NCBI GenBank assembly: GCA_043827025.1
Contig: JBDRPL010000004.1
Location: 1-21,348, forward strand
Reading direction: 5' to 3'
Source: Candidatus Micrarchaeota archaeon
GTDB taxonomy: Archaea; Micrarchaeota; Micrarchaeia; Anstonellales; Bilamarchaeaceae
Length of the DNA: 21,348 nt
Shown: positions 10,594 to 14,545 of the stretch, one piece after another
How positions within the stretch are numbered: position 1 is the stretch's first letter
Layout of the letters: the number at the start of each line of letters is the position of its first letter
The notes under the pieces: generated by a model
Told to the model about the DNA's origin: nothing
What the model saw: the letters and a program-made list of their open reading frames with translations, nothing else
Database searches by the model: none
Made by a program: the position numbers and the translations under genes

Positions 10594-10628
10594 TAAAAAA
10601 TAGATGGGTGAAGCCTAACGGCTTCACC
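10594..10628 (-). terminator. Hairpin plus T-tract downstream of Lys-rich micro-ORF A
   Basis: Perfect 9-bp stem GGTGAAGCC-N4-GGCTTCACC (10607..10628), followed on the minus strand by CATCTATTTTTT. Confidence 0.55.
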
Positions 10629-10642
10629 GTTCAGATAAGAAA

Positions 10643-10705
10643 TTATCTTTTCTTACCTTTTTTCTTAACTTTTGCTTTTGAAGCTTTCTTCTTTTTTGCT
10701 GCCAT
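10643..10705 (-). CDS. 20-aa Lys-rich micro-protein A, MAAKKKKASKAKVKKKGKKR
   Basis: RBS GGTGA just upstream of ATG 10705, TATTTAAA box near 10746..10739, stop TAA at 10645..10643, and a downstream hairpin/T-tract. Confidence 0.75.
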   Translation of the reverse strand: MAAKKKKASKAKVKKKGKKR

Positions 10706-10931
10706 TTATTTTCACCAACTTTTCTTTTCAGATTAACATTTAAATATGTTTCTAATTTTTTAGAATTTTTGAATGATATATTTGTCAAATAAAAAATTGC
10801 AATGAAAAATTTTAAAAAATTTTTAGCATGTCGAGAACCTTGCGTTCACGAGCACGATCAAGAATGAAAATTTATTCTTAACATTGGAAAATCGATATTT
10901 TTCAATACAAAGAAAAAAAAGATAAAATGCT

Positions 10932-11022
10932 TCAGCAACAGCTGCAGCATCCGCCTTTTCTTGCAGGTTTCTTTTTAACTGTTTTCTTAACTGTTTTTTT
11001 TTGCTTTCTTTTTTGCTACCAT
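10932..11022 (-). CDS. Lys-rich micro-protein B, MVAKKKAKKTVKKTVKKKPARKGGCCSCC (29 aa) if the A9 run is read as A8; as written it stops after MVAKKKAKKNS
   Basis: GGTGAAAATAATG start context nearly identical to micro-protein A, TTTAAA box at 11060..11055, A9 run at 11002..10994, and TGA at 10934..10932 in the +1 frame. Confidence 0.65.
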
Positions 11023-11149
11023 TATTTTCACCATTGGAGCTAACGCTGAGAAGATTTAAATTCTTTGCTCTGTTCTGAAATAGTATTTGAAATAATTTAT
11101 AAAAAATAAAATTAAAAAAAAGAAATCTATTTAATGAAGTTCGCTAAGA

Positions 11150-13720: not shown

Positions 13721-14545
13721 CTAGTCTTGATCGATGTCAATTTCTGCAGCCAGTATTTTTCCATCGAGTCCGCTGGCATTTTTGGGAGTGGATATTGTCA
13801 TTGCTATGTCTCCTTTTGGAAGTAGTTCCATTGCTTCATCGACTGCTTTTGGATGGACATATGCCCTGCCCGCCGTTTCGTCGATCTTAATGCTGGAGGA
13901 GTAGATCGGTCTCCCATTTATTTCCAATGTTGGATCTATATCTATCCACTGGCCATCCCGAAGTCTTTCGACCCACCAATGACACCCTCATAACCCGTTT
14001 TCGGCATATTCGAATTTGGCATTTCCAACTATTCTTGCCGGGATTCCGTTTGATCTAAGTATTGCTGTCAGAATGGATGCACGGTGAAAACATTGTCCCT
14101 TCATGAGTCTTAGTGCAGCAATTGACCCTGAAGTTGTAATCAGTTCGTGTGTCATATCTGAAGGTTTAATATGCCTGATTCCAAGTGCTACAATTATGTT
14201 TTGGCGCAATATCATCTCTTCATTTATATTCAGAACATGCTATTTATCCATGATAAACTCTGTTGGAATTATTAATCCTGTTGCAAATGTAGGCAATCTG
14301 CTGATTTTACTACGAAATGCTTCAATTGTCATATGTTCATGAAGAGCCTCTGCCATTTCCTCTTCGCTTATTGCAATTATCTGCGGGTTTGAATGCCGTA
14401 ATCCATATTTTTCTTCAATTATCTGGCCAAGGTTGACAACTGTTAGTTTTTTAAATCCTGCTTGAGGTGTTGAGAACCAAACAGTATTCCTTTTTGATTT
14501 GGACAAATCGGGCTTTGCTTTGTGCTTTGCTTTGTATTTTGGCAT
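13721..14545 (-). pseudogene. Transglutaminase-like (Cys-His-Asp) protein gene interrupted by in-frame TAG (14242..14240) and TGA (13990..13988)
   Basis: Three listed ORFs share one frame (275 codons): ...FIMDK*HVLNINEEMILR...GQCFHRASILTAILRSNGIPARIVG...ENGL*GCHWWVE...WIDIDPT... Confidence 0.75.

Follow-up and report, generated by a model that had tools for sequence, protein, structure and literature searches.

The window analysed here, a stretch of 21,348 nucleotides from a Candidatus Micrarchaeota archaeon (contig JBDRPL010000004.1), carries on its minus strand two very short Lys-rich genes, referred to as B and A in the order in which they are read. Upstream of the pair lie rpl1, rpl10 and rpl12, identified in a Pfam search of the window, and downstream follow genes of the IF-2B and pyrimidine-nucleoside-phosphorylase families (profile search), which we take to be ribose-1,5-bisphosphate isomerase and AMP phosphorylase. 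The features discussed below are these:

11055..11060, minus strand: TATA-like box (TTTAAA) of gene B, 38 nt ahead of the ATG (sequence)
11028..11032, minus strand: Shine-Dalgarno (SD) GGTGA of gene B (sequence)
10987..11022, minus strand: 5' part of gene B, MVAKKKAKKNS and stop, 11 codons as assembled (ATG at 11022, stop at 10989-10987)
10994..11002, minus strand: run of nine A that breaks the frame of gene B (sequence), either a true lesion or a consensus slip
10932..10994, minus strand: 3' part of gene B in the +1 frame, TVKKTVKKKPARKGGCCSCC and stop, with the Cys-cluster tail; aligns with 14 intact homologs
10911..10926, minus strand: T-rich tract after gene B, probable archaeal terminator by predicted function (hairpin not significant, z = -0.5)
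10739..10744, minus strand: TATA-like box (TTTAAA) of gene A, starting at 10744, 39 nt ahead of the ATG
10712..10716, minus strand: SD GGTGA of gene A (sequence, and the same SD in the same-genus genome G001)
10643..10705, minus strand: gene A, intact ORF for a 20-aa Lys-rich peptide (ATG at 10705, TAA at 10643)
10594..10628, minus strand: terminator-like element 3' of gene A, a 9-bp hairpin followed by a T-run (fold z-score)
13305-13192, minus strand: eL41/eS32 gene, 37 aa, between rpS10 and rpl1 (match of 13305-13195 to PDB archaeal L41e chains, E 5.6e-7)

The product of gene A, MAAKKKKASKAKVKKKGKKR, contains 11 Lys and neither Asp nor Glu, and its position, its length of 20 aa and its acid-free composition are as given in a preliminary description of the locus. 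The sequence also confirms the near-identical start contexts of A and B quoted there, as well as the placement of a TTTAAA box some 33-40 nt ahead of each ATG (the boxes begin at 11060 for B and at 10744 for A). The hairpin that had been assigned to A as a terminator holds up as well, since the fold at 10628-10607 has a z-score of -5.0 and none of 200 shuffled sequences folds equally well. G001 carries an ortholog of A, MAAKKKKAKGKKKGKKK, at the same position with a 9-nt in-frame deletion; the TATA-like box region, TATTTAAATGTTAATC, is identical between the window and G001. A hairpin is present at the same place 3' of A in G001 (z = -3.1); its sequence is different, and a two-sequence consensus fold of the two hairpins gave no common pairs. 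Rfam and tRNA scans returned nothing, and searches of Pfam, NCBIfam and PDB returned no significant match to A or B.

A-type genes recur in other lineages. A pattern consisting of an SD, ATG, KK, a gap of any length 6-36 and KxK/R before the stop was searched in the 401 genomes of the phylum, yielding 28 matches in 24 genomes and 0 in the reversed control. None of the 94 genomes in one family (f13) matched this strict pattern, and thus A-type genes are either patchy or missed by it. Twenty-three of the 26 distinct starts are in frame with the stop (one third expected, P ~9e-9, kin not being independent), and the 3 that are out of frame are the beginnings of longer ORFs. The 141 codons of the family left free by the pattern include 83 Lys (37.5 in shuffles), no Asp or Glu (22.4) and no stop (4.4); AAG occurs 46 times in these codons, AGA or GAA not once. 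A TATA-like box lies at -35..-44 in 15/22 members (shuffle mean 2.1, maximum 9). Beyond the stop, 17/23 carry a T-rich tract. These statistics overstate significance because kin are not independent; the effect is large and extends across several families. The preliminary description had pointed to missing conservation of the frame in relatives as the mark of a chance ORF; in fact the frame is preserved, both in these matches and in the in-frame deletion of G001. Since the ortholog in G001 and the frame, codon, TATA and terminator statistics all speak against a chance product, gene A is real.

The start context alone does not identify such genes: among 30 loci retrieved with a looser search for it, 3 are micro-ORFs and at the others ordinary genes begin. 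In a further sample of 60 starts, hand-picked from the 150 listed out of 317, 15 are short Lys-rich ORFs of 10-52 aa. The longest A-type relatives (44-52 aa) bear KKAAKKPA-type repeats, so that A stands at the short end of a graded series leading up to repeat peptides that resemble H1 tails. At the other extreme, genes in family f17 (L087, L088) encode MA and eight lysines (10 aa), complete with TATA box and SD. The composition-filtered A set is 63% K, 17% A and 0.2% E, and the net charge per residue ranges from +0.4 to +0.8 for A and from +0.31 to +0.48 for B. Neighbouring genes are varied rather than conserved, with the next gene convergent for 9/21 A-type genes that have a called neighbour (2/23 have none). 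Selection keeps the charge and composition of these peptides, not their length or exact sequence, and each gene carries expression signals of its own. The A family comprises stand-alone Lys/Ala peptides of 10-52 aa under strong codon-level selection. The idea that small-celled archaea harbour a family of Lys-rich micro-genes, so far overlooked and each with its own promoter, is supported by the pattern search and by the conservation of frame.

Gene B had been described as encoding a 29-aa product with 11 Lys. As assembled, however, the frame closes after 11 aa because of the run of nine A, which leaves the CCSCC tail in the +1 frame; the 29-aa product would need a run one base shorter. Across the genome, the coding DNA of the host (G000) strongly avoids runs of at least nine A: such runs occur once in the 1.03 Mb of its long ORFs, versus 62-70 times in five synonymous shuffles, and there are 59 runs of eight A in its coding DNA. 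Since these longer runs are purged, nine A is unlikely to be a long-term functional allele of B. Any lesion would have to be recent, as B is undamaged elsewhere, in promoter, SD and tail. B was not found in G001 (74% complete), neither at the locus nor by pattern, and its absence at the locus fits ongoing loss within the genus. A generally error-prone assembly is disfavoured because 101 conserved stretches (68.5 kb, including antisense shadows) revealed no true frameshift, the two frameshift-like pairs both being antisense artefacts. We lean slightly towards a real recent lesion, and give a slip in the assembly or a mix of strains a little less than an even chance. We reject a programmed -1 frameshift at A AAA AAC, since the Cys tail is in the +1 frame and each of the 16 homologs reads through in a single frame. 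RNA-polymerase slippage could rescue B, but the case for it is weak: homopolymer errors in E. coli and Buchnera are reported to be mostly single-base insertions, with no frame-restoring case seen (PMC5574713). As assembled, the B of the window is a broken copy of a real family. On the minus strand at 11034, 12 nt upstream of where B starts, there is an in-frame ATG that overlaps the SD, close to where transcription is predicted to begin, and genes of a related genus, g13, have an in-frame GTG at a similar position; a leaderless alternative start for B is possible.

We found 16 intact B-type genes (21-32 aa), 15 of them archaeal and mostly from DPANN, a count that leaves out one candidate without an ATG and one interrupted by N's. 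A Cys-tail pattern gave 32 matches in the 176 genomes of the order, mostly by chance, four of which are intact SD-led genes in g13 (for example MATKKKAKKKAVKKPAKKKSACCSCC in G013). In 6/8 genomes of this genus B is followed ~95 nt later by a plain A-type gene, and each gene of these pairs has its own TATA-like box; of the other two, G072 has only B at the site, and no match came from G436 (67% complete). The window shows this same order, B then A. The flanks of the pair differ between genera (PEP carboxylase in g13), and the start context is common within each pair and different between genera, so that shared ancestry and independent duplication are indistinguishable. In G145 (L125:1430-1690), B and A have almost the same upstream sequence, which suggests a recent duplication or gene conversion of the promoter.

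Two further intact B-type genes were found in G440 and G100. A scan of a genome collection for the B tail returned at least 119 stretches, with 12 in frame among the matches listed. Eight of these 12 are Lys-rich and all archaeal, namely from Aenigmatarchaeota, Altiarchaeota, Woesearchaeota, two Nanoarchaeota, one uncultured archaeon and two repeats of g13 genes that are identical to genes already counted (one titled Micrarchaeia); the four Lys-poor in-frame matches among those listed are bacterial. A metagenome scan for the tail gave 46 stretches, which included one true B-type gene of unassigned taxon and no close strain of the window's organism. The tails include CCSCC, CCCC, HVHKGCCCC, HAHTVCACCR, HAHGKGHRCSYC and CKACGKKDCCCC, and the tail in the window aligns with those of the homologs. 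The B set (composition-filtered) is 40% K, 16% C and 14% A, with 112 Lys versus 40 in shuffles, as strongly selected as in A. Intact homologs in several phyla indicate that the B family is not a chance product, and the Cys tail defines a second conserved type that the preliminary description had missed. That both ORFs are chance products of an A-rich spacer would fit the 55 Lys-rich ATG ORFs of 10-80 aa that a loose filter finds in the host genome, and the broken frame of B. However, the statistics on frame, codons, TATA boxes and terminators, the G001 ortholog and the intact B homologs render it vanishingly improbable, and it is refuted for A and for the B family.

Type A could be a small basic protein that is part of the ribosome, or associates with it, and occupies a pocket in the rRNA, akin to eL41, bS22 or Thx, which resemble type A in size and charge. 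The strong expression signals of A and its position after rpl12 in both G000 and G001 would accord with such a role. However, this place is not conserved: an A-like gene is present within the fetched 1.5 kb at only 2/30 rpl12 loci (three loci being shortened by contig ends), and the neighbours are varied elsewhere. Moreover, A has its own promoter, its length ranges between 10 and 52 aa, and nothing in its sequence is constant apart from the Lys-rich start and end. Indeed, eL41/eS32 is encoded separately in the window, by a gene too short for the usual ORF cut-off and missed by Pfam, whereas A matches no PDB chain at E 10 (nor does the B profile match any chain), and A was therefore rejected as eL41. 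A and eL41/eS32 (aL41) are both tiny, very basic and missed by gene callers, but A has no RWKW-type motif. In a genome search with PF05162 the controls gave no signal. The ribosome link that had been drawn from the rpl1-rpl10-rpl12 position thus fails, and a ribosomal A seems unlikely. Elsewhere in the window, at 13721-14545 on the minus strand, three short ORFs (68, 75 and 101 aa) lie between rpS10 and a beta-propeller gene, the 101-aa one without a Pfam match.

It is also conceivable that the ORFs are leader peptides that sense the supply of Lys or Cys and control the next gene in cis, as the runs of a single amino acid and the hairpin that separates A from the ribose-1,5-bisphosphate isomerase-like gene might suggest. 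The mechanism exists: the polycysteine leaderless sORF attenuators of mycobacteria are short ORFs with a Cys run as in B (10.1101/834739). Unlike these, however, B is SD-led, is not upstream of cysteine-metabolism operons (no such family among 33 neighbours at 12 loci) and is often convergent with the next gene. Convergent layouts, seen for several B-type genes and for the 9/21 A-type genes, largely refute control in cis, and both in g13 and in G000 B is followed by an A with its own TATA box. We consider leader peptides highly improbable.

Alternatively, type B might mainly be a minimal buffer or chaperone for Zn, Cu or Ni with a metallothionein-like Cys/His tail, the Lys stretch being a carrier derived from type A. 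Its tails, such as HVHKGCCCC, HAHTVCACCR, HAHGKGHRCSYC and CKACGKKDCCCC, do combine His, CC and CxxC, and like metallothionein-like and copper-cluster peptides B has vicinal Cys/His ligands (CC, CxCC, CCCC, CxxC, His-Cys). However, no copper, zinc or other metal-homeostasis family occurs among the 33 neighbours (~1.5 kb) of 12 B-type or B-candidate loci, and none of the B loci (n=12) lies in a metal-resistance cluster within that distance. Furthermore, Lys is selected in B as in A (in the composition-filtered set), and each B peptide has only 2-6 Cys. A primary role in metal buffering is thus rather unlikely. A polybasic stretch with a Cys cluster at the end is likewise the membrane-targeting anatomy of the K-Ras4B and Rab C-termini, and B could carry such a targeting or lipidation signal, the peptides acting at the inner membrane face. 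Two-helix proteins of 64-90 aa in related genomes, which begin Lys-rich and then Cys-rich, would be in line with this. Yet type A has no Cys, the tails end variously in CC, CCR, SYC or CQ, and we know of no cytoplasmic Cys-prenylation in archaea, making a membrane signal very unlikely.

A more appealing scenario, which we hold to be somewhat better than an even bet, is that A and B are disordered nucleic-acid-binding polycations. As paralogous, separately transcribed micro-genes, each would give rise to a short mRNA, with the TATA box ~38 nt before the ATG, the SD near the 5' end and an oligo-T end. The unstructured product would act in trans by virtue of its charge, and the convergent next genes of A-type loci point to such action. 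The peptides may coat and condense polyanions, most likely the chromosome and RNA, in the manner of a free histone H1 tail. Type A would be the plain polycation, whereas type B would add a C-terminal cluster of Cys, often of His and Cys, that most likely forms a site for Zn or a similar soft metal, or else disulfides, by which the B tail could cross-link peptide-coated nucleic acid. In the host, B as assembled would yield mainly an 11-aa A-like peptide, unless the run of nine A is a consensus error. Nucleic-acid condensation is plausible on these grounds; since a polycation binds any polyanion, DNA is indistinguishable by sequence from RNA, the ribosome, polyphosphate or the membrane as the target. 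A search for PPK2 stayed below the cut-off.

The chlamydial proteins Hc1 and Hc2 condense DNA and are K/A/P-rich like histone H1 tails. Like such H1-like proteins and tails (the AlgP/PhaF KPAA domain, Hc1/Hc2, the eukaryotic H1 C-terminal domain), A and B are Lys/Ala/(Pro)-rich, acid-free and of low complexity, with a variable number of repeats. Unlike them, A and B have no globular or helical partner domain and often occur with the Cys-tailed paralog in tandem; they stand alone at 10-52 aa, whereas the repeat region of AlgP spans 154 aa. The KPAA tail of Pseudomonas AlgP is the nearest tested analog of the A and B products: KPAA peptides of this H1-like tail bind DNA in vitro, and it also organises polyphosphate granules (PMC9239181). 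The B tail in turn is best read, by analogy with Cys-containing protamines, as a soft-metal site or disulfide cross-linker. Protamine 2 has Zn/His features. Both B and the Cys-containing protamines or sperm nuclear basic proteins are short polycations whose Cys (and His) residues might hold condensed DNA together by cross-links, and both coexist with a Cys-free form; stabilisation by disulfides is reported for these proteins (PMC5122968). However, this is an analogy only, since A and B are Lys- rather than Arg-rich (Arg 2-4%), archaeal and without homology to protamines, and the Cys residues are clustered C-terminally. Nor do A-type genes go with a replacement of histones, as protamines do: of the 22 genomes with in-frame A-type genes, 13 bear histones and 9 lack them, and A was thus rejected as a strict histone substitute.

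It is an open problem how the DNA of DPANN archaea is fitted into such tiny cells, and the host's family mostly lacks a detectable histone: PF00808 matches in only 5/75 genomes of this family (f1) and 0/17 of f9, versus 30/30 in f6 and nearly all genomes in the other orders searched. This pattern represents an apparent lineage-wide loss or divergence of histones. The host genome itself (91.6% complete) has no match to PF00808 or PF09123 and encodes Alba. A review lists Micrarchaeota as histone-positive and Alba-positive (PMC6136690), so that histone loss in the host's family is a result of the present analysis. Divergent histones such as coiled-coil histones are reported in Micrarchaeota (PMC11390915) and could be missed by the two profiles. 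In such a setting it is tempting to envisage a two-component, protamine-like packing of the genome in ultra-small archaea, with a plain oligolysine peptide and, encoded in tandem with it, a Cys/His-tailed paralog that cross-links it via zinc or disulfides, in a Micrarchaeia family largely without histones. Although we judge this unlikely, chromatin would then be condensed by peptides of 10-30 residues that redox state or metal could switch. A specific, testable mechanism follows from the Cys-tailed type and from the conserved way in which it is paired with the plain one, and at this size synthesis as well as binding, compaction and metal assays are cheap.

A and B resemble H1-tail-like polycations and seem to belong to no tested family. 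Pfam and NCBIfam gave no match for A, B or the relatives of 31-52 aa, with low power on short basic peptides, as the missed true eL41 illustrates. Such micro-genes are invisible to annotation: 9/10 peptides looked up are absent from a collection of 15 billion proteins, and the tenth is an unnamed protein. We found no description of A or B genes in a literature search whose coverage leaves out most subscription journals and bioRxiv supplements. What is new here is that B and then A are paired in more than one genus, that the Cys-tailed type occurs in several DPANN phyla, that A is not eL41, and that B is frameshifted in this assembly.

B-type genes are located just after ftsZ in an Altiarchaeota locus (L158), directly after sepF in a Woesearchaeota locus (L165) and between DP2 and cdc6 (L164); 3/12 B loci thus lie near division or replication genes, possibly by chance. 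The two-helix membrane proteins with a Lys-rich and then a Cys-rich start are encoded at L341:203-448, L344:422-655, L349:460-693, L361:1288-1557, L362:1382-1573 and L378:1510-1761. CPMCK forms the end of two of them, and one has a match to LiaF-like TM families in Pfam; they may represent this Lys/Cys module joined to a membrane anchor.
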